Source: a virus (taxonomy: Duplodnaviria > Heunggongvirae > Uroviricota > Caudoviricetes). From it: a stretch of DNA of 64,000 nt. A program made the position numbers and the translations under genes. The notes beneath the pieces were generated by a model. It saw nothing but the letters and a program-made list of their open reading frames with translations. It was not told where the DNA came from and searched no databases. The stretch spans positions 19,092 through 83,091 of the IMG/VR virus record IMGVR_UViG_3300033156_000141. One strand, given 5' to 3'. Each line of letters starts with the position of its first letter. Positions within the stretch are counted from its first letter, which is position 1. Positions 1 through 53,329 of this stretch are shown here, one piece after another.

Positions 1-413
1 ATAAGAAAACTGGTAAGATAATTAGAGACGAATTTAATGAAATCAAACCTAAGAGAAGCTTTCTTGATTGGGTCCTAGGAAGAGAGAGTCATGCAACAGT
101 ATTAGCCAAGGGGTGGGAGAATATAGTTAGATTACTAGGAAATGTAGGAACTGGATATTATATTGATCAGATTTATTGCAACATTGGTAATACTATGTCC
201 ACTTCAAATTCTGTAGTTGTTGGTGACGATTCAGGAGCTACCTTAATAGTCAGTAATTCACAAAGCCCGTGGAGTACAGCTGGTCAGTATTTATGGGTTA
301 AAACTACAAACTCTACTTCTGGTGACGTATTTAATTCAATTAAAGTTGATGTTCAAATTAGCTCTGACCAAGAATGGTGGGTTGAAGAACAATGGATTTT
401 CAGTCAAACATAG
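1..413 (+). CDS. hypothetical protein, 5'-truncated at window edge (possible virion structural protein)
   Basis: Reading frame 0 is open from nt 3 into ORF 195..413, so the gene starts upstream of the window. Confidence 0.4.
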   Translation, partial: KKTGKIIRDEFNEIKPKRSFLDWVLGRESHATVLAKGWENIVRLLGNVGTGYYIDQIYCNIGNTMSTSNSVVVGDDSGATLIVSNSQSPWSTAGQYLWVKTTNSTSGDVFNSIKVDVQISSDQEWWVEEQWIFSQT

Positions 414-1141
414 TTGATGATAGATTAATAGTGAAATATCCAGTAAGTATAGAAGAGTCATTAGAATATAGTATCATTAGCTCGTGTTCTGGTAGGACAG
501 TAGATGCTGGTATTCCTATATTCAAAGATTCATTTACTACTTGGGGAAAGGAACAGGTAGCTAGACTAGTAAGTGCTATAGGATCTCAATATCCAATAGA
601 TGAAGTGCGAGCTAGAGTTGATGGAACTTGGGAGACAGTACCAGCTACTAGTGTAGCTGTAATAAATGGATCTTTAATGGTTCAAAGTGGTACGTTTACT
701 ACAGCTGGAACTTATGACATAGTAGCTGGTGGAAGCTCTTCATATGCTGGAGCTAATCACAATGAAATCTCTACTAGTATACCACTGACTTCTGGTCAAG
801 AACTAGTCTTTACGATTTACTATGGATTCTCTGGTTTGAATTATGGAGGAAACACAATTACAGCTGGTAGACTTGGAGCAGTTTCAGGATATTATCCAAT
901 TGACACTATTGGTGTTCAGTTCAATGGTTTTCTTACTACTAAAGATGCATTTAAAGGCATCTTTTCAAATACACTGAGACTAACTTGCACGGAGTTTACT
1001 AGCTCAGGTACATATGATTCGTTCTCAGCTATAACTTCTAGTCCAGTTGGGGAAGAGTATTATCATATATTCGATGGACATACTATAGTACTGTACGAGA
1101 ATCAAGAACTGGAACCATACTTGTACTTCGTGTATGGATAA
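392..1141 (+). CDS. hypothetical Thr/Ser/Gly-rich beta-rich protein (possible fiber/receptor-binding-like structural protein)
   Basis: 249 aa ORF; composition TTAGTYDIVAGGSSSYAGANHNE typical of fiber-like proteins; no catalytic motifs. Confidence 0.4.
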   Translation: MDFQSNIVDDRLIVKYPVSIEESLEYSIISSCSGRTVDAGIPIFKDSFTTWGKEQVARLVSAIGSQYPIDEVRARVDGTWETVPATSVAVINGSLMVQSGTFTTAGTYDIVAGGSSSYAGANHNEISTSIPLTSGQELVFTIYYGFSGLNYGGNTITAGRLGAVSGYYPIDTIGVQFNGFLTTKDAFKGIFSNTLRLTCTEFTSSGTYDSFSAITSSPVGEEYYHIFDGHTIVLYENQELEPYLYFVYG

Positions 1142-1146
1142 AGGAG

Positions 1147-1683
1147 GTATTTAGAACGGGAAGACAATGCAAAGTATGTGTATCTCCACATAGAGCTGAA
1201 ATAGAAGAGCTTAGACTCAAAAAGAAACTAAGATATATTGATATTAAACAAATTATCAAGAAGAAGTATGGTGAAGACATAGCTATTTCTTCCTTAAGTA
1301 GGCATTTTACTAAGCATGTAGAGGAATATTACAAAGCTTCTCTTCAAGCTGATAGATTCAGACTTAGATACATCAAGGAACAGATTAATGCTATTGTTAG
1401 AGCTGCCAAATCTATTAGAGAGCAAATGGAGATACTGGAACAGCAACTAAGACATGTAGTTGATCGTATGGATGATCCAGATGCTAGGAAGGAAGCTAGA
1501 GAGATAATGAGATCTACAAGAGAATTAGTAGAGCTAATGTTTAGATTTGAGGATAAGTTCAAGACTGACTCTGTTACTCAGTCTGAGATATATGAGAAGA
1601 TAATGCTCTGTATAAGAGACTTTCCTCCAGAGCTAATTAACAAGTTCATAGAAAGATGGGAAGAGGTATTCTCTGAGGGTTAG
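1147..1683 (+). CDS. putative small-terminase-like DNA-binding protein with CxxC zinc motif; start codon unresolved
   Basis: Frame open from the SD AAGGAGGT at 1141; translation ...GRQCKVCVSPHRAEIEELRLKK... Sits immediately upstream of the large terminase. No ATG/GTG/TTG in frame before 1426. Confidence 0.3.
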   Translation, partial: VFRTGRQCKVCVSPHRAEIEELRLKKKLRYIDIKQIIKKKYGEDIAISSLSRHFTKHVEEYYKASLQADRFRLRYIKEQINAIVRAAKSIREQMEILEQQLRHVVDRMDDPDARKEAREIMRSTRELVELMFRFEDKFKTDSVTQSEIYEKIMLCIRDFPPELINKFIERWEEVFSEG

Positions 1684-1688
1684 TAACT

Positions 1689-3050
1689 ATGCCTGTTCCA
1701 ATACAGCTAAAGATAATTCAATGGTACAAAGATCCTTCTTCATTTTTTAGAGACTTGTATCATCAAGAGCCATTTCCATATCAAGCTAGAGTTCTTTCGT
1801 ATCTTCCAGATCTGAATCTTAGAAGAATTCTTATACTCTCAGCTGCAGGAACTGGAAAGTCAAAGCTTTTAGCTTGTATCGCTCTTTGGCTAGCTTTAGT
1901 ATATAGTTACTATCATAGAAAGAAATACGATGTGGTTATAGTTTCTGGTTCAGCTGAGCAGTCTAGATCATTGTATGAGTATTCAGCTGTTCCTCTTAAA
2001 GAGAATGATATATTTGATGAAGTAATAGATGGTGAAGTCCTAAAGACAATTACAAGATTCAAAACAAAGTCCGTAGTAAGAGCTTTGCCATTATCTCTTA
2101 AAGCTATTCAGGGTAAGCATGTACCAGCTGTTATAATAGATGAAGCTGCACTAGTAGATGACTTTACAATAAATGATACTTATCGTATAGTTGGAGGATT
2201 CGAAGACTCTTTAATTATTCTAAGTGGAACTCCAATGGAGTATACATCAAAGTTCGTAGAGATGTGGTTGGATAAGAAGACATACCCAGATTATTTTGAT
2301 CTTTCAGAAGACAAGAGAACTCCTACTACATGGGCTAGATTTACTTGGTCAGCTATGGACTGTCCTAGATTTACAGAGGAAGAGATAGAAGAAGCTAGAA
2401 GAAATCTTACTGAGGAACAATTTAGAATATTCTGGGAAGGGATTCCATATCCAGTTACTAATACTGTGGTACCTATAGACGATATTAGAAAGTGTTCTAT
2501 TGGGATACACAAGTTTAGATATGATCCAAGTAGAAAGAATGGTAAGGTCATATTTGGTATAGACTATGGATATAGAGATTTATCTGTTATTGTAGTTGCT
2601 AACAAGATTGATGACATGTACAGAATTATTGATGTAGCTGAGTGGAATAGAACTAAGTATGAGAATATTCAGGATTGGATAGAAGCTTATGCCATGAGAT
2701 ACAGACCAGACTATGTGTTTGTAGATCTGAATCCTAAAGGGGAGTCTCAGAGAACAGTGGATAGACTACGGATGAAAGGAATAATGATTGAAGCTGTTGA
2801 CCTAGCTAAGGAGCTTGGAACACTACAAGTCAGAATGAAGACTTTGTTTGAGAAGGAGAAGATACTTGTACCAGAGGAATTTCAACCACTATTAAATGAG
2901 CTTAGACTGTATACATGGGATAAGAGAAAGGGAGATGATAGAGTAACTGCATTGATGCTTTCTCTAAGAGACATAGAGGAGAATAGACAGAGTACTGATA
3001 TCTATTACAAAGTAGCTAGAACAAGGAGAAGACCACTTGTCCTATTCTAG
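1689..3050 (+). CDS. terL: terminase large subunit (ATPase + nuclease)
   Basis: Walker A LSAAGTGKSKL, Walker B AVIIDEAALV, ILSGTP coupling motif, C-terminal RNaseH-like nuclease region with FVDLN; 453 aa. Confidence 0.8.
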   Translation: MPVPIQLKIIQWYKDPSSFFRDLYHQEPFPYQARVLSYLPDLNLRRILILSAAGTGKSKLLACIALWLALVYSYYHRKKYDVVIVSGSAEQSRSLYEYSAVPLKENDIFDEVIDGEVLKTITRFKTKSVVRALPLSLKAIQGKHVPAVIIDEAALVDDFTINDTYRIVGGFEDSLIILSGTPMEYTSKFVEMWLDKKTYPDYFDLSEDKRTPTTWARFTWSAMDCPRFTEEEIEEARRNLTEEQFRIFWEGIPYPVTNTVVPIDDIRKCSIGIHKFRYDPSRKNGKVIFGIDYGYRDLSVIVVANKIDDMYRIIDVAEWNRTKYENIQDWIEAYAMRYRPDYVFVDLNPKGESQRTVDRLRMKGIMIEAVDLAKELGTLQVRMKTLFEKEKILVPEEFQPLLNELRLYTWDKRKGDDRVTALMLSLRDIEENRQSTDIYYKVARTRRRPLVLF

Positions 3051-3056
3051 AGATGA

Positions 3057-3069
3057 GATAGTTACTATC
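3057..3069. repeat. GATAGTTACTATC palindrome copy
   Basis: Perfect 13-bp palindrome directly after the terminase stop. Confidence 0.8.
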
Positions 3070-3341
3070 TTAGAGAGGACTCTGAGAATTCTTATGAGAA
3101 AGCTTAGTAAATCAGATTCGTTTATTTTTTATTTCAATAGGTACTGCTCATGATATAGTGTTTCTATTGTCTAAATTAAAGAGACTTCTAGAAGATAGTA
3201 ACTAACTCGGAATATCATTTGTACATATTACTTATACATTTTAAGTCCAGGTATCTATTTCTCTTCTCTTCTCTTCCTTTTCTTATTCGTTTATTTCTCA
3301 ATACGCTTATATAATTCTATTGCATAAAAAAAAGAATTGGT

Positions 3342-4106
3342 TTATAGCTGTTGAGCTTCGGCTAATCGGCATATTTCAGTTATCATTTCTTCCTTATTGA
3401 TTATCTCAATGTGTTCATTACGTTCTATTGTTTCAACATAGATCCTTAAGAGATGTCTTTTAGCTTCATCGTTCATCTTTGAGTATGCAACTGTTTTAAA
3501 TTTCCAAAATTTAGCATAGATGTTTGTCTTGAATCCATGATGCTTTTCAACCATATTTTCAATTGGATGCCATTTTTCAGTATTACAAAATGTTATCTCT
3601 GATCTCTCGGGAAGCTTTGGGTTAAATTGTGTATCAACTAAACAAATCGGATTTGCTGGCATAAATTTTTTTAGATGTATCATAGCTGTTAGGATTGAAG
3701 CTTTTGTTTGATCCTTGATATAATAAAGATATAGTTTTTTGTCTACCTTTAAGCTCACAAAATATCGTTTAACTGATCTCTTATGTTTGCCCCTTTGAGA
3801 TCTAAAGCTTATCTCTGTGATGTCCATATAGCAATTAGCTTTAGTCGCTAAATGTGTATTGATTCTTTCAACTTTTTTCTTGTGTTCTCTACAGAAGTCT
3901 TTATATTGTTTGTGTATGTTCTTATCTCTTAAGCCTAGTCGCTTTGCATGTCTGTATATCGTTGAGGGGTCAAATTTTAATCCATAGAGTTTTTTAATTT
4001 CTCTTGCTATTTCTCTATAGCTCATTCCATTTTCTTCTAACCAAATTCTCATCTGTTCCTTACTTATGTGTATTTCTCTCGGTCTTGCCATTTTACGTTT
4101 CACCAT
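3342..4106 (-). CDS. HTH-domain mobile nuclease-like ORF (homing-endonuclease-like or transposase-like)
   Basis: Only convincing minus-strand gene. N-terminal HTH (MSYREIAREIKKLYGLKFDPSTIYRHAKRLGLRDK) is paralogous to the HTH of ORFs 29187..29870 and 31119..31652. Flanked by 12-bp inverted repeats TCTATTGCATAA (~3317) and TTATGCAATAGA (~4221). Confidence 0.4.
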   Translation of the reverse strand: MVKRKMARPREIHISKEQMRIWLEENGMSYREIAREIKKLYGLKFDPSTIYRHAKRLGLRDKNIHKQYKDFCREHKKKVERINTHLATKANCYMDITEISFRSQRGKHKRSVKRYFVSLKVDKKLYLYYIKDQTKASILTAMIHLKKFMPANPICLVDTQFNPKLPERSEITFCNTEKWHPIENMVEKHHGFKTNIYAKFWKFKTVAYSKMNDEAKRHLLRIYVETIERNEHIEIINKEEMITEICRLAEAQQL

Positions 4107-4240
4107 TTCGTTTTTGCTTATCCATAGATCATAAGGTATATTTAAGACTTTGGGTATTATCGGAATAAAATCTTAAGCTGATTATGTATTTTTCAACATA
4201 ATTATATAAGCATATTGAATTATGCAATAGACTTAATAAA

Positions 4241-4269
4241 GCTGTTGCATAACCCTAAAACTTATAAAG
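4241..4269 (+). promoter_or_regulatory. promoter repeat copy 1 (partial operator + TATA box CTTATAAAG)
   Basis: Matches TGTTGCATAACCC-N-CTTATAAA consensus shared by 9 intergenic copies; ~30 nt upstream of the gene start. Confidence 0.55.
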
Positions 4270-4299
4270 AGACTTGTCTAGTTGAGAATTGTGATTAAA

Positions 4300-4596
4300 A
4301 TGTTGAGTAGAAAATACTATAAGGCTATAGCTGGGATATTAAGGGTTTCATCTAATAAAAAGGAAATAGTAAAGCGACTATGTAGATACTTTGAGCTAGA
4401 TAATCCTAGATTTGATAAAAACAAATTCCTAGAAGAAGTCTATGGATACAAGACTCCTGATTACTGTGCAGAGAATGACTGTAGCTACTATTTTGAATTT
4501 GGAGAATGTAGATGCTTTGCTCCATGTGAAAAATGTGGAAGAACTACTCTTCACATTAATACTAAGTGCTCTATCTGTGGAACTCCATTGAAGTAA
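4300..4596 (+). CDS. small protein with C-terminal zinc ribbon (CEKCGRT...CSICGT)
   Basis: ORF 4282..4596; first ATG at 4300. Confidence 0.5.
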   Translation: MLSRKYYKAIAGILRVSSNKKEIVKRLCRYFELDNPRFDKNKFLEEVYGYKTPDYCAENDCSYYFEFGECRCFAPCEKCGRTTLHINTKCSICGTPLK

Positions 4597-4644
4597 TTGC
4601 AACAACCTTACTAAGTATGTTGCAAAACCCTTAAGCTTATATAG
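4596..4644 (+). promoter_or_regulatory. promoter repeat copy 2: palindromic operator TTGCAACA-N13-TGTTGCAA + BRE/TATA (CTTATATAG)
   Basis: ATTGCAACAACCTTACTAAGTATGTTGCAAAACCCTTAAGCTTATATAG; gene start 4675. Confidence 0.65.
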
Positions 4645-4674
4645 TGATATACTAACCTAGATTTGGTGATTTAG

Positions 4675-4974
4675 ATGATAACAAGTATCAATCTGTTCAA
4701 ACCTATAGCTACTAAAATAATCAATGAGCTTACACAAGATGCCTATTGGAGATTTACCAAGCTGACAGATAATGATATGACAATGAGATACAACTTCTAT
4801 GATGAGTATGGATTCGAATATAATAGAGATGTCTACATAAGAGCTTCTAAAGACAACAGAAAGCTGATTGTCTATGTAAACAAGAAAGACTTTCCAGCTT
4901 TTGCTAGAAACGAGTATTTAGATGAAGACATTATTAATCTATTTGAGAGCTATCTAGTCGGTTACATCGAATAA
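4675..4974 (+). CDS. hypothetical protein (99 aa)
   Basis: ORF preceded by promoter repeat 2. Confidence 0.5.
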   Translation: MITSINLFKPIATKIINELTQDAYWRFTKLTDNDMTMRYNFYDEYGFEYNRDVYIRASKDNRKLIVYVNKKDFPAFARNEYLDEDIINLFESYLVGYIE

Positions 4975-5022
4975 TGCAACATGCTTATTAAGACTGTTGC
5001 AAAACCCCAAATCTTATAAACC
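4975..5022 (+). promoter_or_regulatory. promoter repeat copy 3
   Basis: TGCAACATGCTTATTAAGACTGTTGCAAAACCCCAAATCTTATAAACC. Confidence 0.65.
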
Positions 5023-5053
5023 TAAATAGTAACTATGATTTGGTGACATCGAA

Positions 5054-5329
5054 ATGATAACAAGAGAATGGTATAGAATAGACGAAATATGTTGTAACAG
5101 CTATTGGGTAACTCATCCTTCAGTTTATTACAAAGATGAATACATCAGAGCTAGCATTGGAATTTATGGAGATCAGGATTTAATCAATAAGAAAATGGAT
5201 AAGATAAAGAAGAAGATGAAAAGCTTAGGGTATGAATATTTCAAGTCCACTAAGCTAAAACCAACTGCATTAGGTAATGAAGTCTTTAGAATAACCTTGT
5301 TCTTTAGAAAACCAAGAGGTAACAAGTAG
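5054..5329 (+). CDS. hypothetical protein (91 aa)
   Basis: ORF preceded by promoter repeat 3. Confidence 0.5.
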   Translation: MITREWYRIDEICCNSYWVTHPSVYYKDEYIRASIGIYGDQDLINKKMDKIKKKMKSLGYEYFKSTKLKPTALGNEVFRITLFFRKPRGNK

Positions 5330-5334
5330 TGAAG

Positions 5335-5484
5335 ATGACTTTAGAAGAGATCTATCAAAGAACAAAAGATACGACTGATAAGGAGAAGGTTGAATATTTC
5401 TTTCAATACTTTCCAGAGAACCAAGCTAGAGCTTTAGTTGCTATGCTTATCATTCAACCGACTATTAGACGTAATCGTCAATAA
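5335..5484 (+). CDS. hypothetical small protein (49 aa)
   Basis: ATG ORF MTLEEIYQRTKDTTDKEKVEYFFQYF... not in the supplied track because of its length; fills the gap before promoter repeat 4. Confidence 0.3.
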   Translation: MTLEEIYQRTKDTTDKEKVEYFFQYFPENQARALVAMLIIQPTIRRNRQ

Positions 5485-5531
5485 TCCAACATCCTTATTA
5501 AGATTGTTGCATAACCCTTAAGCTTATATAG
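5485..5531 (+). promoter_or_regulatory. promoter repeat copy 4
   Basis: TCCAACATCCTTATTAAGATTGTTGCATAACCCTTAAGCTTATATAG. Confidence 0.65.
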
Positions 5532-5557
5532 ATGTAGCTTAGTAATTAAAGGTCAAG

Positions 5558-6133
5558 GTGATGTGGATGAGAGTAATAGAGTTAGATGATAATACAATCT
5601 ACATGGACGATGAATCCTTCAAATGCCAAATCGAAGAAGATAAGGACATCTATCTAGGATTGATATGTGAAGCTATTGATTTTAGAGAGATAGACAGTAG
5701 ATTCGATGATGATCCATATCCCGTAGTTGTGGAGACTCAAATCGTAGTAGCTCCAAGATCTCTAGATAGTAACTATCTTGAAAGAGCTAATGAAGGAGTA
5801 GATCTTGAGCTAAACAATGATGAAATTAAAGTCTATGTGTCCTACCGTTATTCTGGAGGAGTTCCTGTAAACATGGAATCTATCAAGGGATCTGTAACTT
5901 GTGATGTAGATTCTGAAGTTAGAACACAAAAGCATAGACTCTATGGAGAGATTAAGGTTAGACACTTCAGAACAGTAGCTGATGCTCTCAAGTATGCTAA
6001 AACAGTCTATAAACACAATGCTCAAGCTGTATTTGGTTTAGTAGGATTCTATCTTGATAGAACATTAAACCTAATAGGGACTACAGGATGGGACATAATA
6101 AATCTACAAGCTAATAATGTCGATTATATGTAG
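5558..6133 (+). CDS. hypothetical protein (191 aa)
   Basis: ORF preceded by promoter repeat 4; followed by a T10 run. Confidence 0.5.
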   Translation: MMWMRVIELDDNTIYMDDESFKCQIEEDKDIYLGLICEAIDFREIDSRFDDDPYPVVVETQIVVAPRSLDSNYLERANEGVDLELNNDEIKVYVSYRYSGGVPVNMESIKGSVTCDVDSEVRTQKHRLYGEIKVRHFRTVADALKYAKTVYKHNAQAVFGLVGFYLDRTLNLIGTTGWDIINLQANNVDYM

Positions 6134-6151
6134 TCTTTTTTTTTTCCTATT

Positions 6152-6198
6152 TTACAACAAGCTTATTAAGTATGTTGCATAACCCCAAGCTTTATAAG
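6152..6198 (+). promoter_or_regulatory. promoter repeat copy 5
   Basis: TTACAACAAGCTTATTAAGTATGTTGCATAACCCCAAGCTTTATAAG directly after an oligo-T terminator. Confidence 0.65.
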
Positions 6199-6230
6199 TC
6201 TAGTTACTAACTATGGTTCGGTGAAATCGG

Positions 6231-6674
6231 ATGTTTGGACTACTTGAAATGTTGGGATTAGCTAGTCAAGTAAAAACAGAGAATATCAAGAAATTCTATT
6301 TTAAGGGACTAGAAGCTACAATAACAGAGTCTAGTGATCCCTCAAAGACCGTTGAGATAGTAATAAGGAAAGAATGGAAATACACAGGATTTGAAAACAT
6401 GGAAGAAGCTCTAGAGTTTGCTGGGGAAAAGACAGCTGAACTTAGCTCTCTTAATGAGCTAAAGCCTATACTAGAGAAAGTCTCTGATCTACTGAGAGAA
6501 TACAACATCAGCTTTGATGAGTTTCTAAAGATAGCTAAGGAAGCTCTTGATGAGAAGATAGAGAGACCTAATCTTCCATTACCACCAAATTTTTTATGGA
6601 CATCAGAACCAGAGAACGAACAAGATATATCGTCTAGTGAAGCTTCTGAACATGAGGATTCAGAAGCTTCCTAG
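6231..6674 (+). CDS. hypothetical protein with acidic/Ser-rich C-terminus (147 aa)
   Basis: ORF preceded by promoter repeat 5. Confidence 0.5.
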   Translation: MFGLLEMLGLASQVKTENIKKFYFKGLEATITESSDPSKTVEIVIRKEWKYTGFENMEEALEFAGEKTAELSSLNELKPILEKVSDLLREYNISFDEFLKIAKEALDEKIERPNLPLPPNFLWTSEPENEQDISSSEASEHEDSEAS

Positions 6675-6691
6675 TTTTTTATGTTTGTATT

Positions 6692-6740
6692 TTACAACAC
6701 TCTTACTAAGCTTGTTGCATAACCACAAGTCTTATAAATA
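6692..6740 (+). promoter_or_regulatory. promoter repeat copy 6
   Basis: TTTACAACACTCTTACTAAGCTTGTTGCATAACCACAAGTCTTATAAATAG. Confidence 0.65.
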
Positions 6741-6753
6741 GATAGTAACTATC
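6741..6753. repeat. GATAGTAACTATC palindrome copy
   Basis: Perfect palindrome between promoter repeat 6 and gene start 6776. Confidence 0.8.
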
Positions 6754-6775
6754 TTTGTTCAACGGTGACTAAAAA

Positions 6776-7126
6776 ATGACTCGTAAGGATCTTCCAAGAA
6801 TCTATTATCGTGATTTTGAGATACATCTATTTCAAGACAAGGAAGAAGATAAAACAACCTATGGAGCTAAGATACACTATTATATATGGACAAGTAGAAA
6901 TGAATCCAAAGGAGAAGTAGTAGCTGAAGCTATCGATACAGTTGATGAGCTAGCTCAAGCAATAGAGAACAAGTATGTTCTAGCAAAGATAGCTAAAGTT
7001 CTTGAAGAACATGACATGGATTTACACGACTTTCTATGGAACATTAAAGCACAAGTAGAATTTGCTGGAGCTATACACATAAATCTGAAGAAAGAATCAG
7101 AGCCTGATAGCTCTGATTCTTCTTGA
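6776..7126 (+). CDS. hypothetical protein with acidic Ser/Asp C-terminal tail (116 aa)
   Basis: ORF preceded by promoter repeat 6. Confidence 0.5.
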   Translation: MTRKDLPRIYYRDFEIHLFQDKEEDKTTYGAKIHYYIWTSRNESKGEVVAEAIDTVDELAQAIENKYVLAKIAKVLEEHDMDLHDFLWNIKAQVEFAGAIHINLKKESEPDSSDSS

Positions 7127-7134
7127 TTTTTTTT

Positions 7135-7182
7135 TACAACAAGCTTATTGAGCTTGTTGCAAAATCCAAAGTCTTAAATACT
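7135..7182 (+). promoter_or_regulatory. promoter repeat copy 7
   Basis: TTACAACAAGCTTATTGAGCTTGTTGCAAAATCCAAAGTCTTAAATAC after a T-run. Confidence 0.6.
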
Positions 7183-7185
7183 AAA

Positions 7186-7198
7186 GATAGTAACTATC
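7186..7198. repeat. GATAGTAACTATC palindrome copy
   Basis: Perfect palindrome between promoter repeat 7 and gene 7215. Confidence 0.8.
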
Positions 7199-7214
7199 TT
7201 TCGGTGAAATCGAA

Positions 7215-7625
7215 ATGGTGAAACTAGTAATAGAGTTAGACGATAGCTATAACGGAGATCCAAGCTTCTTTCAGGGACATGGACATGTCTTTGAGAAGGA
7301 AAACTGTGTAGCTTGCTTAGCTGTTGGTTTCTCAATAGACTATCGGGAAACTGTATCAGATATAATCGAAGGTATCAGGGAAGAGCTACCAAATACGGAT
7401 TATGAACCTATAAACGAAGAGCTGTTCAAGAAATATGAAGATGAGATAAGAAATCTATCTGATGAGGATTTTATCAGAGCTTTTAAAGATGCTCTAGAAC
7501 CAAATACAAAGCTAGAGGATAAATTCTTCAGGGATGACTTTGAGATAGACGAAGATATAGACGATGAAATCTATGATCCACCTATGCTATTACTATACTT
7601 CCACATCTATGTAGAGGAAGAATAG
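7215..7625 (+). CDS. hypothetical highly acidic protein (136 aa)
   Basis: ORF preceded by promoter repeat 7. Confidence 0.5.
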   Translation: MVKLVIELDDSYNGDPSFFQGHGHVFEKENCVACLAVGFSIDYRETVSDIIEGIREELPNTDYEPINEELFKKYEDEIRNLSDEDFIRAFKDALEPNTKLEDKFFRDDFEIDEDIDDEIYDPPMLLLYFHIYVEEE

Positions 7626-7647
7626 CTACTATCTTTTTTTTTATTTT

Positions 7648-7694
7648 TCAACAAGCTTACTAAGATTGTTGCATAACCTTAAAGCTTATAAATA
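7648..7694 (+). promoter_or_regulatory. promoter repeat copy 8
   Basis: TTCAACAAGCTTACTAAGATTGTTGCATAACCTTAAAGCTTATAAATAC after a T-run. Confidence 0.65.
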
Positions 7695-7726
7695 CTTTAG
7701 TTGCTATCTCTTTCAAACATTAGGAG

Positions 7727-7966
7727 ATGATAGAATTGGATAAGAGAAAATTTGTAAGTCCATTAAGGATTTCAGATGGAGACTATCTTATTGAAATAGC
7801 TGACGTTAGTGAAAAAGCTGATGAAAAGAAGTATGCCATAGCTATTTGGGAGTTTAGAGTCTATGGAGATGGATTCAAGAGTATCAATGAAGCTCTTAAC
7901 AATGCCTTAGCTACTGTTGAAAAGTTAAGGTTTCAGGAGGAGCTGAACTTTGGAACAACGGACTAA
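7727..7966 (+). CDS. hypothetical protein (79 aa)
   Basis: ORF preceded by promoter repeat 8. Confidence 0.5.
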   Translation: MIELDKRKFVSPLRISDGDYLIEIADVSEKADEKKYAIAIWEFRVYGDGFKSINEALNNALATVEKLRFQEELNFGTTD

Positions 7967-8105
7967 ACCACTAAAATGGAAAAGATGTAGCAATCCTAAC
8001 TGTAGAGCTAGGAATGAAGCTGAATTGACAAGAGATGACTATTGCTCTCTTTGTGGTTCAGAACTTGTTGAAGTGAAGAGCTATCAATTCATAGACTACA
8101 GATAG
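7950..8105 (+). CDS. small zinc-ribbon protein (TTG start)
   Basis: SD AGGAGG 8 nt upstream of TTG; translation LEQRTKPLKWKRCSNPNCRARNEAELTRDDYCSLCGSELVEV...; overlaps the end of 7727..7966 in the +1 frame. Confidence 0.35.
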   Translation: MEQRTKPLKWKRCSNPNCRARNEAELTRDDYCSLCGSELVEVKSYQFIDYR

Positions 8106-8113
8106 TTACTATC
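8101..8113. repeat. GATAGTTACTATC palindrome copy followed by T9
   Basis: Perfect palindrome + oligo-T, terminator-like. Confidence 0.8.
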
Positions 8114-8127
8114 TTTTTTTTTAAGAT

Positions 8128-8176
8128 ATTGCAACAAGCTTATTAAGGTTGTTTCATAATCCAAAGTTTTATAAAT
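8128..8176 (+). promoter_or_regulatory. promoter repeat copy 9
   Basis: ATTGCAACAAGCTTATTAAGGTTGTTTCATAATCCAAAGTTTTATAAATC. Confidence 0.6.
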
Positions 8177-8217
8177 CCCAAATCCTTAATCATAGAACAC
8201 CAAAGGAGAGAACAGAT

Positions 8218-8448
8218 ATGAGCTTAAGCGTAGACGCCATTAAAGAAGAGATCCATAGAATCTATTTAGACATCCAATATCTCAAGAATAACAGAATAAG
8301 TAAAGAAATGATAAGGAGACACTCAAGACTCAAGACATCTAAAGAGTTTAAAGCTATGGTCAAAGATCAGAAGTCTCTAGAGAATAACGCCTTTAAAATC
8401 TGGAGAGAACGTATAAGAGCTTTGAAATCTCTACTCAAACACTCCTAA
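8218..8448 (+). CDS. hypothetical basic helical protein (76 aa)
   Basis: First ATG with SD AAAGGAGAG. The track start at 8149 is a TTG inside the promoter repeat and is unlikely to be real. Confidence 0.45.
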   Translation: MSLSVDAIKEEIHRIYLDIQYLKNNRISKEMIRRHSRLKTSKEFKAMVKDQKSLENNAFKIWRERIRALKSLLKHS

Positions 8449-8787
8449 TCTTTTTTTTTATAAGAGAACCATAATTATGAAGATCTTGATTTTGAGACAC
8501 ACAAGCTTTTTACTATAATATAATAGCTATTTTCTTTGAGATTAGGAGAATACAATGTATGGATTATGTTGTTGGTATCGTAAAGAAGAGAAAAACCGTA
8601 AAATCCTTAAGCTCGGAGCTTTCCATTTGGGATAAGAAGAGAGAAGAAACGCAAATCAGTTTTCCAAGAAAAAAGATAGTAACTATGTTCTCATCCTAAT
8701 CCAGCTAACCGCAGAAAGAGAAACATTTATATACTCCTCTAGCCTTATGGTTTCTCGCTTTCGGAAAAACGGAGAGATGAAGCAAAA

Positions 8788-9114
8788 ATGCCCATGACCA
8801 TTGGAAACCGAAGGGTTGATGTCGAGAAATCTCCAGAGGAATTTCTGCCCGTTAGGATTCCAGAACCCCAAGTGAAGAAGCTTTGTCGTTTCTTGGACAT
8901 TCAGTATACAGAGAAATTCGTTAGAGACAAAGATGGTAACATAGTATACACAGAGAGGAAAGATGGTAAGAAGATACCAAAGACCAATAACCAATCTCGT
9001 AAGACTATGGCACAGGGAATACGTCAATTCCTAATAGTGTTATGTGATCAGCTAGAAAATGCTGAAGAGGATGAAAACGGAGTTAAGACTATAGCTATCA
9101 CTTATGAACCGTAG
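8788..9114 (+). CDS. hypothetical protein (108 aa), compositionally GC-richer than surroundings
   Basis: ATG ORF with SD-like AAGCAAAAATG; codons ccc/ccg/gcc atypical for this genome. Confidence 0.45.
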   Translation: MPMTIGNRRVDVEKSPEEFLPVRIPEPQVKKLCRFLDIQYTEKFVRDKDGNIVYTERKDGKKIPKTNNQSRKTMAQGIRQFLIVLCDQLENAEEDENGVKTIAITYEP

Positions 9115-9162
9115 ACATACACAATATCCCCTCTTTTTTTTTATGTTTAAGGTGATGGTTAT

Positions 9163-9708
9163 ATGCCTATAATCATAAACAATAAGGAAATGAGTCTTGT
9201 TAAAGGTAAGAATGGCATAAACGCTATTCTGTTAGACAGAACGAATAACACATTTCAAATCTATACAGAATCTAAACGATATAAACCAACACCTATACCA
9301 TTGGATTCAGTATTTTCTGATAGAGGATATAACATTAAGGATTGGAATATCAAAGCAATAGGCAACTCTACTACTATGTATGTTAAGATCACTAATGTGA
9401 AGAGAGACCTAGTTATTTCATATTCTCATAAGGAAATGCTAGAGAAAGCTTATGATGATAACTATAAGATTCCTTTGTATGTAAAAAGAGTATTAGCCTA
9501 TATTTCTAACAAGCTTATTGATAGAGTTGATGAACCAATTAAGTTACTATTAGTAGCAAAACACAGACTTATTGATTCTGTATTGACCTTAGCTATTCCA
9601 TGTCCAAAATATAAAGACTATGTAAGTATTGAGAGATGTAAGTTTTGTAAAGATCATATTAAGATTATCTATGATAAGATACCAAAGGTAGTATGCAGAC
9701 TTGGATAG
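9163..9708 (+). CDS. hypothetical protein (181 aa)
   Basis: ORF with upstream GGTGATGG SD. Confidence 0.5.
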   Translation: MPIIINNKEMSLVKGKNGINAILLDRTNNTFQIYTESKRYKPTPIPLDSVFSDRGYNIKDWNIKAIGNSTTMYVKITNVKRDLVISYSHKEMLEKAYDDNYKIPLYVKRVLAYISNKLIDRVDEPIKLLLVAKHRLIDSVLTLAIPCPKYKDYVSIERCKFCKDHIKIIYDKIPKVVCRLG

Positions 9709-9867
9709 CTCTCTTCCTATTTATTTTAAGAAGGGATTATCATGCCTTGTATTCATGTCTTTAAATTCTACAAACATGATAAGGAAAATAGACAGTATGT
9801 CTTCAGATGCATAAAATGTGGTAAGGAAATTAGAACAGAAGATAAGACATTTATGGAGAGACCATAG

Positions 9868-10167
9868 ATGTCAATGTATGTTATTGATGAGAAAGCTTCA
9901 GTTAATCTCATTATTGGTAATGTGATTTCTGATTCAGTAGCTGAATCTGATAAGCATAATATCTACTTATTCATTCCTGAAAAGAACATGGTAGATGATG
10001 ATACTGTTATTGTAAGATTTAGAGGAGAGCTTATTGAAGAGGACTTATTCTCATTAGTCTTGAGACTATTAGAGCATGAGTCAATTCACATAGCTATTAG
10101 TCGTAATGTTTCAAATCTTGTATCACATGACTATGATAAAGTCTCTCCTTATGTTGATGGAATATAG
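9868..10167 (+). CDS. hypothetical protein (99 aa)
   Basis: ORF; overlapping stop/start context ATAGATG. Confidence 0.45.
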   Translation: MSMYVIDEKASVNLIIGNVISDSVAESDKHNIYLFIPEKNMVDDDTVIVRFRGELIEEDLFSLVLRLLEHESIHIAISRNVSNLVSHDYDKVSPYVDGI

Positions 10168-10180
10168 ATAGTAACTATCT

Positions 10181-10411
10181 ATGGAGATGAAAAGCTTGAA
10201 TGAAAAGGAATATGAACTTCTAGAAAGATGTCTTATAGCTTCAGAGCTTGAACCAACTAGAGTAATAAGAGTATTGAAAATAGTCAAAAGAAGAGTAGGG
10301 ACAGAGAAGCTAAAGGAAATGTTCATTAAATATCCAAAATTCATCGAATTAGCTCACCGTATATCTCCATTTCTATTTGAAAAATCATGGCGAGAATCTG
10401 GATATGAGTAA
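10181..10411 (+). CDS. hypothetical protein (76 aa)
   Basis: ORF with SD GGAGATG. Confidence 0.45.
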   Translation: MEMKSLNEKEYELLERCLIASELEPTRVIRVLKIVKRRVGTEKLKEMFIKYPKFIELAHRISPFLFEKSWRESGYE

Positions 10412-10922
10412 GATAGTAACTATCTTTTAAAGAGCTTATGGAGATGATTGTTTATCTTATCATGGATATATCATTGTTCTCACCTCCTTTACATAAGTTG
10501 GATGAAAGTGAGAGGATGATAGAGACATGAACCATTATGGTGATGAGTGTCTCTCCTATCTGTTTGTCCTAGAAAGGATGAATGATAATGGTTAGAATAG
10601 TAGAAACTTGGAAATGGAGGGATACAAAGAAAAGGATAAACTATACTTGCTTTAAAACTGATGATGGCAAACAATACATGATTTACACAGATGGAATGAG
10701 AGCTTTGATAAAGGAAATTGAGCCTTCTCACAAAGCTTACAGACATAGTTGAGGAGAATTGATATAAATTATGAAAAGATATAGTATCATGGTCATCCCT
10801 AGTATTGTTGGCAATGTGAAGGCATATCTATCTATGAGAAGTGCCTTCAGTTGCACAGGGAGAGAAAAGGGATGACAAACCATTAAACCTTCTTATCTCT
10901 CCCTGATGGAGATGATTAAAAA

Positions 10923-11564
10923 TTGAAAGATCGTATAGCCAACAAGCTTCTGAATGAATTTGGATGGATAAGATGTATTAAGAAGAAAGGAGATGTCTAT
11001 GAGATAGCCTTTGATATGTTCAATGTTACTACTGAGAAATATATTAGATTACTTGAATATCTTGAAAAACACAAGATTTCTCACAGAATAAAGAATGATG
11101 TTGGTAGACTGAAAGGTCAGGAGAAAATCTATGAAGATTCAGAAATAGATGAAGAACTTAAAGACATTATAGCTGAGCAAATACCATCAGAATTCTATTG
11201 GATAAGGAAAAAGGCAGATATCTACGAGATACTTATTGATATGGATCATATTTCTATTTATCAATATATTGATTTGATAAAAGATCTAGATACTTTACCA
11301 ATATCTTACAGAGTCATTGGAATGTATAGAGATCTAGTAGCAAGAGAACGAATCTTTTGTAAAGACAAAGCTACTGTTGAACTTACAGAACAAGAGCTTG
11401 AATTTGTTATCAGATGTCTTGAGCAAATGGCATGTGAAGAAGGAGATTTTTGGACTCAACACGCTCAAGATATTCTTAATAGATTCATAGACAAGTTAGA
11501 AGAATTGGAGAAAAAAGAGGATAGTAGCTATGATAAAGTGTCCAGAGTGTGGACATCTGATTAG
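10923..11564 (+). CDS. hypothetical protein with internal tandem duplication (213 aa)
   Basis: Two ~80-aa repeats (KKKGDVYEIAFDMFNVTTEKYIRLLEYLEKHKISHRIKN / RKKADIYEILIDMDHISIYQYIDLIKDLDTLPISYRVIG); TTG start with SD. Confidence 0.45.
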   Translation: MKDRIANKLLNEFGWIRCIKKKGDVYEIAFDMFNVTTEKYIRLLEYLEKHKISHRIKNDVGRLKGQEKIYEDSEIDEELKDIIAEQIPSEFYWIRKKADIYEILIDMDHISIYQYIDLIKDLDTLPISYRVIGMYRDLVARERIFCKDKATVELTEQELEFVIRCLEQMACEEGDFWTQHAQDILNRFIDKLEELEKKEDSSYDKVSRVWTSD

Positions 11565-11946
11565 GACAAATGCTCTAGCACATAAAATAGTTAAGGACAA
11601 AGATGGAGTTTGGGAGGAGATCATCTACAAGCATAGATGTCCCGAATGTGGATGTGAGTTTAAGGAAGTCATGAGAATTGTGAACGATGTCATAGTTACA
11701 AAGCATGGTGATTCAAAGATGAACTATTATCTAGCTGTCTTTGATGAAAGGAATGGAGAAACCACAACTACTCTATTCAAGATAATAAAAGCTAGCAATA
11801 CCGATAAAGCTGAGGAAATAGCTAGACAAGATGCACTTGAAAATTCTATATGGGATGTAGGGTTTGAATCTATCAGAAAGCTAAAGTATATTCAACAAAT
11901 ACAATCTTTAGACGATATTCCTTCTCCATTCATGTTGAAAGAGTAA
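11530..11946 (+). CDS. zinc-ribbon protein (138 aa; CPECGH...CPECGCEF)
   Basis: Two CxxC pairs. Confidence 0.5.
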   Translation: MIKCPECGHLIRTNALAHKIVKDKDGVWEEIIYKHRCPECGCEFKEVMRIVNDVIVTKHGDSKMNYYLAVFDERNGETTTTLFKIIKASNTDKAEEIARQDALENSIWDVGFESIRKLKYIQQIQSLDDIPSPFMLKE

Positions 11947-11968
11947 TTGAGTATCGGAGATAGATGAT

Positions 11969-12163
11969 ATGGTTCAGATCGAAATTAGAGATCACAATGG
12001 AGATATACTTCCTTTATGGAAGTGTCCCTATTGTAACGGAGATCTAGAAGAAGTTGATAAAGAAGAGTGTTCAGCTCTAGATATCTACAAGCAGTGTCTT
12101 AAGTGTGGTAGGATCTTCAAAGAGACTTATGTTATAGAATCGATAAGTGAGGTAGATAGCTAA
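11969..12163 (+). CDS. small zinc-ribbon protein (CPYCNG...CLKCGR)
   Basis: Two CxxC pairs. Confidence 0.45.
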   Translation: MVQIEIRDHNGDILPLWKCPYCNGDLEEVDKEECSALDIYKQCLKCGRIFKETYVIESISEVDS

Positions 12164-12794: not shown

Positions 12795-13106
12795 ATGGTG
12801 ATCCATTTGCAGAAAAAGTATCTACGAGAGTATCTTGAGAAAAGAGGTATTAAGGTCAAACATCCATTTATAGTAACTAAAATATTCATAGCTTTGAAGG
12901 ATATAGCTAGTAGAGATGAGATGTTCTCTTGTCATGATTTAATAAGTTATTTTGAGAGGGATCAACCATCGATAGTTACTATCGGTAGCTATCTTTCTAG
13001 AATAGAGAAGCTAGGTATCATAGAAAAGGTTGAGAACACAAGATATCCATACTTTTACAGAGTCAAGGATTCATTTCAAGAGTTTATGAAAAATCTAGGT
13101 TTATAG
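12795..13106 (+). CDS. putative winged-helix transcription regulator
   Basis: FIALKDIASRDEMFSCHDLISYFERDQPSIVTIGSYLSRIEKLGIIEKVEN resembles ArsR/MarR-like wHTH recognition helix + wing. Confidence 0.45.
   Translation: MVIHLQKKYLREYLEKRGIKVKHPFIVTKIFIALKDIASRDEMFSCHDLISYFERDQPSIVTIGSYLSRIEKLGIIEKVENTRYPYFYRVKDSFQEFMKNLGL
12971..12983. repeat. GATAGTTACTATC palindrome copy inside a coding sequence
   Basis: Perfect palindrome encoding SIVTIG within ORF 12795..13106. Confidence 0.8.
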
Positions 13107-53127: not shown

Positions 53128-53329
53128 GATAGTTACTAAGTCTGGATACAAGATAATACAGGAAACATATAGAGTATGGAAGATCATATCTCCTAAAGGA
53201 AAGTTATACTATGTATGGTTGTGTAACAATAAGCTTGTATGTTCATGTCCTGCTTATTCGAAATATAGAGGACATTGTAAACACATAATGATGATGAATT
53301 TGTATGTATTTAAGGAGGGAATGAAATGA
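53117..53329 (+). CDS. SWIM zinc-finger protein
   Basis: CSCPAYSKYRGHCKHIMMM = CxCxnCxH SWIM signature. Confidence 0.55.
   Translation: MVAEIVTKSGYKIIQETYRVWKIISPKGKLYYVWLCNNKLVCSCPAYSKYRGHCKHIMMMNLYVFKEGMK

Follow-up and report, generated by a model that had tools for sequence, protein, structure and literature searches.

Introduction

Two described systems come closest to the genetic modules reported here. The first is formed by the promoter-early stem-loop (PeSL) cassettes that T4-type phages carry in their hyperplastic genome regions (Arbiol et al. 2010, PMC2839356; Comeau et al. 2014, PMC4122927). The second belongs to the haloarchaeal tailed virus HGTV-1, for which a TATA-like plus inverted-repeat motif 5' of most open reading frames (ORFs) in one genome arm has been described and likened to PeSL (PMC3950731). 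Here, we analyzed a 64,000-nucleotide stretch of a virus of the class Caudoviricetes (IMG/VR record IMGVR_UViG_3300033156_000141, positions 19,092 to 83,091; hereafter the window), in which nine copies of a module combining a palindrome with a TATA box span positions 4223-8175. The array is probably a hypervariable accessory-gene island of a tailed virus, built of nine composite terminator-operator-promoter modules. It lies next to a gene encoding a protein with a helix-turn-helix (HTH) and a DDE domain, itself flanked by palindromes of the same family.

The likeness to PeSL cassettes lies in short composite modules of terminator and promoter placed between small, mostly orphan, non-essential genes, and in the fact that the modules bound insertions, deletions and replacements between close relatives, here those of the genes c2, c6 and c8b, of the DDE gene, and an inversion in the related contig L016. 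PeSL promoters are of the sigma-70 type and are coupled to a stem-loop terminator, whereas the array has promoters of the archaeal B recognition element (BRE)/TATA type and mostly bare oligo-T terminators, with a long hairpin at two unit ends only. Mini-circles arising by exchange between adjacent modules are a further mark of PeSL cassettes. The inverted repeat of the array is moreover a two-part, protein-type palindrome 5' of the TATA box rather than a transcribed hairpin, and the array is adjoined by a DDE gene bearing the same palindromes. Our re-derivation of the HGTV-1 motif from NC_021328 gave at least 21 copies at 128-143.8 kb, composed of a TATA, a contiguous GC-rich stem CTCCTCGTG-GC-ACGAGGAG and a second TATA. 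Both viruses are archaeal-type tailed viruses with many small ORFs, each behind the same TATA and inverted-repeat motif. However, the HGTV-1 stem is contiguous, GC-rich and set between two TATAs, whereas the array palindrome is AT-rich, has unconstrained spacers, stands at a fixed 12 bp 5' of the TATA box and is common to the flanks of the DDE gene; the two motifs have no sequence similarity and the host lineages differ.

Two further systems share features with the locus. The host-takeover module of Bacillus phage SPO1 and the pre-early region of T5 group small early genes that have their own strong promoters and terminators and act in host shut-off. The array likewise clusters small genes, each or nearly each with its own promoter and terminator; the SPO1 and T5 promoters are bacterial and without a shared palindromic operator, whereas the timing and function of the array are putative. 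In acr-aca loci, anti-CRISPR promoters contain inverted repeats to which the HTH repressor Aca binds, and the resemblance extends to small, often acidic, fast-evolving proteins behind strong promoters and to an inverted repeat paired with a virus-encoded HTH protein (a candidate here). The Aca site overlaps the promoter, whereas the array site lies 5' of the BRE, and the cassette proteins matched no known Acr or Aca family in Pfam or PHROGs, PADLOC and Acr libraries not having been searched.

Anatomy of the array

A repeat search of the window returned nine in-register copies of a repeat of ~64 nt, at 4207, 4582, 4959, 5469, 6137, 6677, 7119, 7631 and 8114. Its core is a 27-bp, two-part palindrome, TGCAACA-NN-CTTA-N-TAAG-NN-TGTTGCA, which opens each module (Table 1). 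A first-pass annotation of the window, made from its letters alone, had described nine near-identical promoter copies with a palindromic operator of two outer arms around 13 free positions. The nine copies and the outer arms stand, and the dyad proves larger, with the inner CTTA/TAAG blocks as a second part; the first copy, placed at 4241 in that annotation, begins at 4223 and has a degenerate left arm. With up to 3 mismatches allowed, the pattern CAACANNCTTAYTRAGNNTGTTGCA matched the nine array sites and no other position in the 64 kb, on both strands because the element is palindromic, against a chance expectation of 0 (100 shuffles). The observation of the first-pass annotation is confirmed.

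The geometry of the modules is rigid. In nine modules out of nine, exactly 12 bp separate the right arm from the TATA box, which puts the box exactly 26 bp away from the palindrome centre. The gap has the BRE-like sequence WAACCCnAAGC and the box reads TTATAAA, TTATATA or TTAAATA. From box to start codon the distance is 38-50 nt (50 nt for c8a, if its start is TTG 7736), which loosens the earlier figure of about 45 nt, and Shine-Dalgarno (SD) sequences, GGTGA or AGGAG, lie 5-10 nt 5' of the start codons. The nine promoters serve 11 ORFs: units 3 and 8 are bicistronic, so that the description as single-gene cassettes holds for the promoters and not for the genes. A module often begins with an oligo-T terminator belonging to the previous unit, followed by the palindrome, the 12 bp, the TATA box and the ORF or ORFs; at least five modules have a second, 13-bp palindrome placed 3' of the TATA box and 5' of the SD. 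T-runs of at least 6 occur 5' of modules 5-9 only, plus one 3' of c9 (6136, 6675, 7127, 7634, 8114 and 8451), which places a terminator at six of the nine unit ends; modules 2-4, for which a T-run had also been claimed, directly adjoin the preceding stop codon.

Palindromic copies clustered near the terminase gene might also be structural or replicative repeats, such as origin iterons, packaging signals, or RNA or DNA hairpins. This is scarcely credible for an element whose copies each stand at a fixed distance from a TATA box and a start codon, lie 375-668 bp from their neighbours and have spacers that are not complementary; there is no GC-skew inflection and no Rfam match.

Constraint on the palindrome

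Relatives of the virus were collected by a pattern scan and by terminase-based searches. They comprise L001-L003 (IMGVR_UViG_3300033149_001657, terminase 92% identical), L004/L007 (IMGVR_UViG_3300028891_000081 = Ga0180300_10000004, 56%), L005 (IMGVR_UViG_3300033149_003115, 59%), a 3.1-kb contig, L012, binned in a Candidatus Woesearchaeota metagenome-assembled genome (MAG) (96%), and short metagenome contigs, L018-L022, that are 89-94% identical to the array. In L003 eight modules are complete and a ninth is a half module. The five modules of L004 share the architecture and the 12-bp spacing, but both of their outer arms have changed symmetrically to TTTAACA-NN-CTTA-N-TAAG-NN-TGTTAAA. L005, which served as a negative comparison only, has no array: a single gene stands between terminase and the conserved downstream gene, behind AACCCTAAATCTTTTATATA without a palindrome. 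In a relaxed palindrome scan across IMG/VR, more than one copy per contig was found only in this lineage, with singletons elsewhere.

Within the copies of the window, symmetry reaches 80-89% in the outer arms and 94-100% in the inner ones, whereas complementarity of the NN spacers (20-28%) is at chance level. Constraint was assessed by comparing eight window copies with their orthologues in L003, L012, L018 and L022 (15 comparisons). Differences affect 16 of 330 arm positions (5%) and 41 of 75 positions of the spacers and centre (55%), a contrast (Fisher p ~1e-22) whose p value overstates independence, the sequences being related, and which is nonetheless very large. By the same measure, the immediate upstream flank differs at 38% of positions and the BRE/TATA stretch at 16%, and the right, TATA-proximal arm is better kept than the left. 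The anatomy of the element, its selective constraint and its conservation in the lineage with a symmetric change of the arms are observed directly. Since the arms are constrained, the spacers free and the symmetry of the spacers at chance, the palindrome is likely a site for a symmetric, sequence-specific DNA-binding protein rather than a hairpin, which agrees with the candidate protein site of the first-pass annotation.

Promoter type and host

Promoters of genes outside the array provide the reference for the module boxes: AAASNTTTATATA in the window, L004 and L005, with canonical examples AAACATTTATATA at 8721, AAACCTTTATATATA before 20858 and GAAAGCTTTATATA in L004, and the general form AAANNTTTATATA. 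All nine array boxes are close to the canonical TTTATATA of non-array genes and slightly sub-consensus. At the BRE position the modules have nAAGC, AAAGC or AAATC 5' of the box, against AAACA, AAACC or AAAGC in the canonical promoters, and this position varies moderately between orthologues. The modules very likely act as promoters. The predicted transcript start, 22-27 bp 3' of the TATA, would fall at or just 5' of the GGTGA SD.

The core promoter could alternatively be the palindrome itself, its A/T-rich centre (CTTAYTAAG, or ATTATATAAG at the flanks of the DDE gene) being the TATA between inverted BRE-like arms; transcription would then start near the downstream TTATAAA and give leaders of 35-45 nt that hold the second palindrome described below and the SD. 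The centre does resemble the downstream element 26 bp away (AAGCTTATTAAG versus AAGCTTATAAA), the copies at the DDE gene have near-perfect TATA centres, the leaders would have more typical lengths and the HGTV-1 module also has two TATA-like elements. Unlike a TATA, however, the central base is free (10 of the 15 orthologous comparisons differ, and all L004 copies have C or G), and it is the downstream element that agrees with the canonical BRE/TATA promoters outside the array and is still present in L005, where the palindrome is missing. We therefore consider a promoter within the palindrome quite improbable and retain the downstream box.

An array of bacterial early phage promoters, whether sigma-70-like or served by a phage polymerase or sigma factor, with intrinsic terminators, would fit the tailed-virus gene content, a terminase most like those of T5-like phages, and the 12-bp hairpin and T-run at two unit ends. 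Such a reading is very improbable. Sigma-70 geometry occurs at no module: the TTGCAT-like hexamer stands 12 bp from the TATA, versus 16-18 bp between sigma-70 -35 and -10 elements, and none of the 16 sigma-70-like matches in 3000-9500 (28 expected by chance) lies at a module. The hairpin is absent at most T-runs, no RNA polymerase gene is among the annotated window proteins, and the window encodes an archaeal/eukaryotic-type RadA with an N-terminal helix-hairpin-helix (HhH), PolB and inteins; the GGTGA-type SD and the Woesearchaeota MAG contig point the same way. A sigma-54 reading of TTGCA was also rejected, there being by eye no GG 10-11 bp upstream. The first-pass proposals of a non-sigma-70 spacing and of an archaeal BRE/TATA fit are supported.

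All T-runs of at least 8 in the window stand at gene ends, most without a preceding hairpin, which fits archaeal oligo-T termination. Annotated window proteins include terminase, RadA (with HhH and an intein in the P-loop), a family B DNA polymerase (PolB), an intein-bearing DUF2201 protein, RNA ligase, ThiF, a radical SAM protein and a methylase. RadA, PolB, the inteins, the hairpin-less oligo-T terminators and the canonical BRE/TATA promoters together indicate that the host is probably an archaeon, in line with the first-pass annotation; the binning of L012 suggests that it is possibly of the DPANN/Woesearchaeota lineage. A search with the RadA extein returned a virus-specific clade and no host name, and no CRISPR or provirus link to a host was found. 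Megablast of positions 1-12000 against GenBank phages gave no match, the terminase protein had no exact match on record, and Rfam matches and tRNAs were lacking in the window as a whole.

Cassette exchange between relatives

The window and L003 are homologous by blastn in the blocks 1144-4540, 4598-4673, 4995-6761, 7120-7929 and 8095-10180. Relative to the window, c2 and c6 are swapped in L003 for unrelated genes and c8b, which encodes a zinc ribbon, is absent. The left breakpoints of c2 and c6 lie at the start codons (4673 and 6761), so that the orthologous promoter and leader stay in place, and the right breakpoints lie in or just 5' of the next module, homology resuming at 4995, 7120 and 8095. 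Between the window and L012 the DDE gene itself is swapped: L012 has an allele whose protein is only 37% identical, and the breaks (3333 and 4189) coincide with the palindromes. The L016 contig has the array cassettes in inverted orientation with respect to the DDE gene. The modules are thus breakpoints of cassette replacement between related viruses, a point that the first-pass annotation missed, as it did the adjacent HTH-DDE gene with its flanking palindromes of the same family.

Contig L016 (ENA ERZ2433807 NODE_87415, 3373 bp) has an AT-rich island at ~330-2460 (2.1 kb, GC ~32%) with ~52% GC on either side. Within the island lie a truncated HTH-DDE gene with its palindrome, module 1, and two more modules whose cassettes, among them a c7 homologue, are inverted; TATTC...GAATA inverted repeats mark both boundaries, and the flanking DNA includes an ORF that by eye looks like an Ldh_2-like dehydrogenase. 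L016 could be an island inserted in a cellular genome or an assembly chimera. In L005, positions 6260-6900 form a long tract of 9-nt TGT-NNN-NNN (Cys-X-X) repeats, which would encode an extremely cysteine-rich repeat protein.

The adjacent HTH-DDE gene

The gene at 3342-4106, the sole minus-strand gene of the region, is divergent from the array. The HTH of its product matches HTH_38 at 22 bits, under the Pfam cut-off, and the IstA/IS5376 HTH at E=2e-4; neither this protein nor five relatives gave a Pfam match to a catalytic domain. In an AlphaFold model built from a 7-sequence alignment (predicted local distance difference test, 71.7), the protein has an RNase H-like DDE fold, with a beta1-beta2-beta3-alpha-beta4-alpha-beta5 core. 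D95, D158 and E187 are invariant, and the triad is intact in every full-length family member. The family is tiny, with 14 matches at E <=1e-3 among 1.84 billion cluster representatives, and is nearly limited to this virus group.

Inverted repeats of 30 nt surround the gene, 3298-3327 pairing with 4189-4218 at 83% complementarity. Each repeat is itself palindromic, belongs to the family of the array sites and has a centre of 2 nt; these flanking palindromes are present in the window, L003, L012 and L017. The gene and the array co-occur in the window, L003, L004 and L012, and L005 is without both. Because palindromes of this family border its own gene, which co-occurs with the array, the HTH-DDE protein is our best candidate, tentatively put forward, for the binder of the array palindromes. 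The winged HTH protein encoded at 12795-13106, earlier suggested as the regulator, gave no Pfam match, and nothing ties it to the array. The DDE gene and module 1 are separated by a divergent control region of ~115 bp in the window (4107-4222) and ~420 bp in L012 (2468-2889), the L012 region containing CATATTAGCTT three times. The promoter of the DDE gene itself, AAGTCTTAAATATA, lies on the minus strand near 4150 and is like the TATA variant of module 7.

A transposase-driven platform, integron-like or similar to an insertion sequence (IS), would turn this arrangement around: the palindromes would be recombination sites of the HTH-DDE enzyme, comparable to terminal inverted repeats, at which it would excise, insert or invert cassettes together with their promoters, and regulation would be secondary. 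The intact D-D-E triad in a DDE fold, the shared architecture of the 30-nt repeats and the array sites, the co-occurrence of gene and array and the swap of the DDE unit itself at palindromes between the window and L012 can all be counted for it, as can L016, with its inverted array and its AT-rich island of DDE gene and cassettes between GC-rich flanks. IS30-type enzymes, for their part, target palindromic hot spots. On the other side, the c2 and c6 exchanges leave promoter and leader in place and replace the ORF alone, which fits homologous recombination better than cutting at a palindrome. In the AT-rich flanks of the DDE gene no clear target-site duplication was identified, the 64 kb hold no second copy of the DDE unit, and L016 is possibly a chimeric assembly with a truncated DDE gene. 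Such a platform appears unlikely. For the exchange itself, homologous recombination between modules is the probable route, as the breakpoints suggest, and catalysis by the DDE enzyme would be an unlikely one.

Known mobile elements help to situate the gene. Enzymes of the IS30, IS21 and IS3 types likewise combine an N-terminal HTH with a DDE domain of the RNase H fold and have inverted repeats of ~30 bp at their flanks; the present gene differs in lacking a significant Pfam catalytic-domain match, in its fixed position in four related viruses, in the absence of a visible flank duplication and in a family nearly confined to this virus group. Integrons comprise IntI, a tyrosine recombinase, with attI and attC sites and gene cassettes. 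The array resembles them in having a recombinase gene divergent from exchangeable cassettes separated by imperfect palindromes, whereas its enzyme has a DDE/RNase H fold, each of its units has its own TATA module where integron cassettes are promoterless behind a single Pc promoter, and its breakpoints fit homologous exchange. With no IntI and with cassettes that carry their own promoters, the array was rejected as an integron.

Cassette genes and other features

Ten of the eleven cassette proteins were searched against Pfam and PHROGs (c8b was not submitted), with noise only as a result. All-against-all BLAST linked c5 and c6 alone, at E=1e-4, and hhalign probabilities of 22%, 12% and 0.2% gave no convincing paralogy. 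The absence of family matches and of convincing paralogy implies that the repeated unit is the regulatory module and not the genes, and it bears out the earlier description of the cassette proteins as unrelated. That these small acidic or zinc-ribbon proteins act early or against the host, as in the early/host-takeover regulon of the first-pass annotation, is plausible from what other viruses do, with about even chances. The C-terminal tails of c5 and c6, acidic and serine-rich, are encoded by perfect 12-bp hairpins running straight into a T-run (6639-6680 and 7092-7135); these are bacterial-looking intrinsic terminators inside coding sequence, unlike the other T-runs.

Table 1. Features of the array and of the adjacent HTH-DDE gene (window coordinates; each module starts with the first base of its palindrome)
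Feature	Position	Strand	Remarks
P0L, left flank of DDE gene	3298-3327	.	degenerate palindrome of the 28-bp type; orthologues better kept: TTCAACATGCTTATATAATTCTGTTGCA (L003), TTCAACATGCTCATATAATCATGTTGAA (L017)
T8 run	3326-3333	-	likely oligo-T terminator of DDE gene, 9 nt past stop
HTH-DDE gene	3342-4106	-	254 aa; N-terminal transposase-type HTH, then DDE (RNase H-fold, integrase-like) domain
P0R, right flank of DDE gene	4192-4219	.	28-bp palindrome TTCAACATAATTATATAAGCATATTGAA; L003 orthologue TTCAACATGATTATATAAGCATGTTGAA; 3 bp from module 1
Module 1	4223-4268	+	palindrome 4223-4249, left arm degenerate; 12 bp; TTATAAA at 4262
c1	4300-4596	+	98 aa, basic, 9 Cys, C-terminal zinc-ribbon-like; N-terminal domain kept in L003, L004, L012
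Module 2	4598-4643	+	no preceding T-run; adjoins c1 stop codon
c2	4675-4974	+	99 aa; unrelated gene in L003, promoter and leader retained
Module 3	4975-5020	+	L003 keeps right arm and TATA only
Cassette 3	5054-5484	+	two ORFs: c3a 5054-5329, c3b 5329-5484
Module 4	5485-5530	+	
c4	5567-6133	+	188 aa, acidic
T10 terminator after c4	6136-6145	+	no hairpin
Module 5	6153-6198	+	
c5	6231-6674	+	147 aa, acidic; 12-bp hairpin and T6 at end (6639-6680)
Module 6	6693-6738	+	
Second palindrome	6741-6753	.	GATAGTAACTATC, between TATA and SD of cassette 6; similar at 5026-5036, 7186-7198
c6	6776-7126	+	116 aa, acidic; unrelated 121-aa gene in L003; present in L018-L020
T9 terminator after c6	7127-7135	+	
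Module 7	7135-7180	+	TATA variant TTAAATA
c7	7215-7625	+	136 aa, very acidic (39 D/E); most widely kept cassette (L003, L004, L016, L018-22)
T9 terminator after c7	7634-7642	+	
Module 8	7647-7692	+	
Cassette 8	7727-8105	+	c8a to 7966, likely start TTG 7736 by L003 comparison; c8b 7950-8105
Terminator after c8b	8101-8122	+	palindrome GATAGTTACTATC and T9
Module 9	8130-8175	+	right arm TGTTTCA
c9	8218-8448	+	76 aa, basic, helical
T9 terminator	8451-8459	+	ends array

Several units have a second palindrome, GATAGTWACTATC, placed after the TATA and before the SD. In the form (G)ATAGTWACTAT(C), 13 bp, it has 22 copies in the window against 0.2 expected (for example at 3058, 5026, 6742, 7187, 8102, 10168, 10413, 13766, 22754 and 63206). 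Eleven of the 22 are intergenic; seven of these stand no more than 8 nt from a stop codon and three between a cassette TATA and its SD, and some of the stop-proximal copies, such as that at 8102, run directly into a long T-run. L004 has a different palindrome, ACTATATCTCTCAGATATAGT, at the equivalent positions. The element is probably a second, genome-wide protein site or a weak 3'-end hairpin.

Several other features of the window deserve mention. Between the array and the conserved gene at 8788, the stretch 8449-8787 holds a small ORF (8559-8699) followed by the canonical promoter at 8721. The RadA P-loop intein, with a homing-endonuclease-like insert, and the intein of the DUF2201 metallopeptidase/VWA-like protein lie at 53326-55209 and 28223-30508, and an HNH endonuclease gene at 18795-19451. 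A long untranslated region (20597-20857) stands 5' of a 631-aa gene and contains the canonical AAACCTTTATATATA box as well as GGAGTTCCTA...TACTCCTCG as a direct repeat in two copies; it has no Rfam match and may represent a small RNA or a structured leader.

Discussion

We propose that host TBP, TFB and RNA polymerase would start transcription at the TATA of each module, and that a dimer or tetramer would contact both blocks of each half-site, the outer one of 7 bp and the inner one of 4 bp. The palindrome-binding protein, for which the HTH-DDE protein is the foremost candidate, would place all nine units under one control. The right arm of the palindrome ends ~5 bp 5' of the BRE; archaeal activators, Ptr2 and TFB-RF1 among them, also work from sites upstream of the BRE. 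Because the palindrome is 5' of the BRE and the TATA is sub-consensus, we favour positive control, in which the binder would recruit or stabilise TFB/TBP on a weak TATA, the sign of the control being uncertain. The second palindrome may add repression or act at 3' ends. As repeated sequences, the modules would also provide portable homology, through which recombination would replace, delete or invert cassettes between related viruses.

Some observations weigh against this proposal. The left arm is less conserved, and the site may act asymmetrically; the invariant spacing could partly come from shared descent of the copies, not from selection. A canonical TATA-to-start distance would give leaders of ~8-20 nt, with the SD at the extreme 5' end in several units. 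As to the binder, the HTH matches of the protein are under the Pfam cut-offs, and the gene-proximal palindrome of L004 keeps TTGAA-type arms and not the type of the L004 array, which weakens the idea of one protein binding both the DDE-flanking and the array palindromes. Finally, the assignment to a Woesearchaeota host rests on one binned contig of ~3 kb.

A bolder and distinctly unlikely reading is that an archaeal virus has here a cassette-capture system made up of the HTH-DDE protein and the palindromes. If true, the enzyme would recognise 27/28-bp palindromes bearing an outward archaeal promoter, and would excise, invert and insert promoter-equipped cassettes. It would then be a DDE-based functional analogue of the integron and might move the island into cellular genomes, as L016 hints.

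Transcription control is almost unknown in archaeal viruses, above all in those of uncultured DPANN-type archaea. The island proposed here gives a sharply defined cis-element, with half-sites, free spacers, a fixed TATA distance and a natural specificity variant in a relative. It also offers a candidate binding protein together with a set of orphan genes that are plausibly deployed together against the host. The shuffling of mobile regulatory cassettes, as in T4-type phages and as suggested for HGTV-1, would thereby extend to another archaeal virus lineage, in a mode physically linked to a transposase-family gene, in which homologous and enzyme-catalyzed exchange can be directly told apart by experiment.

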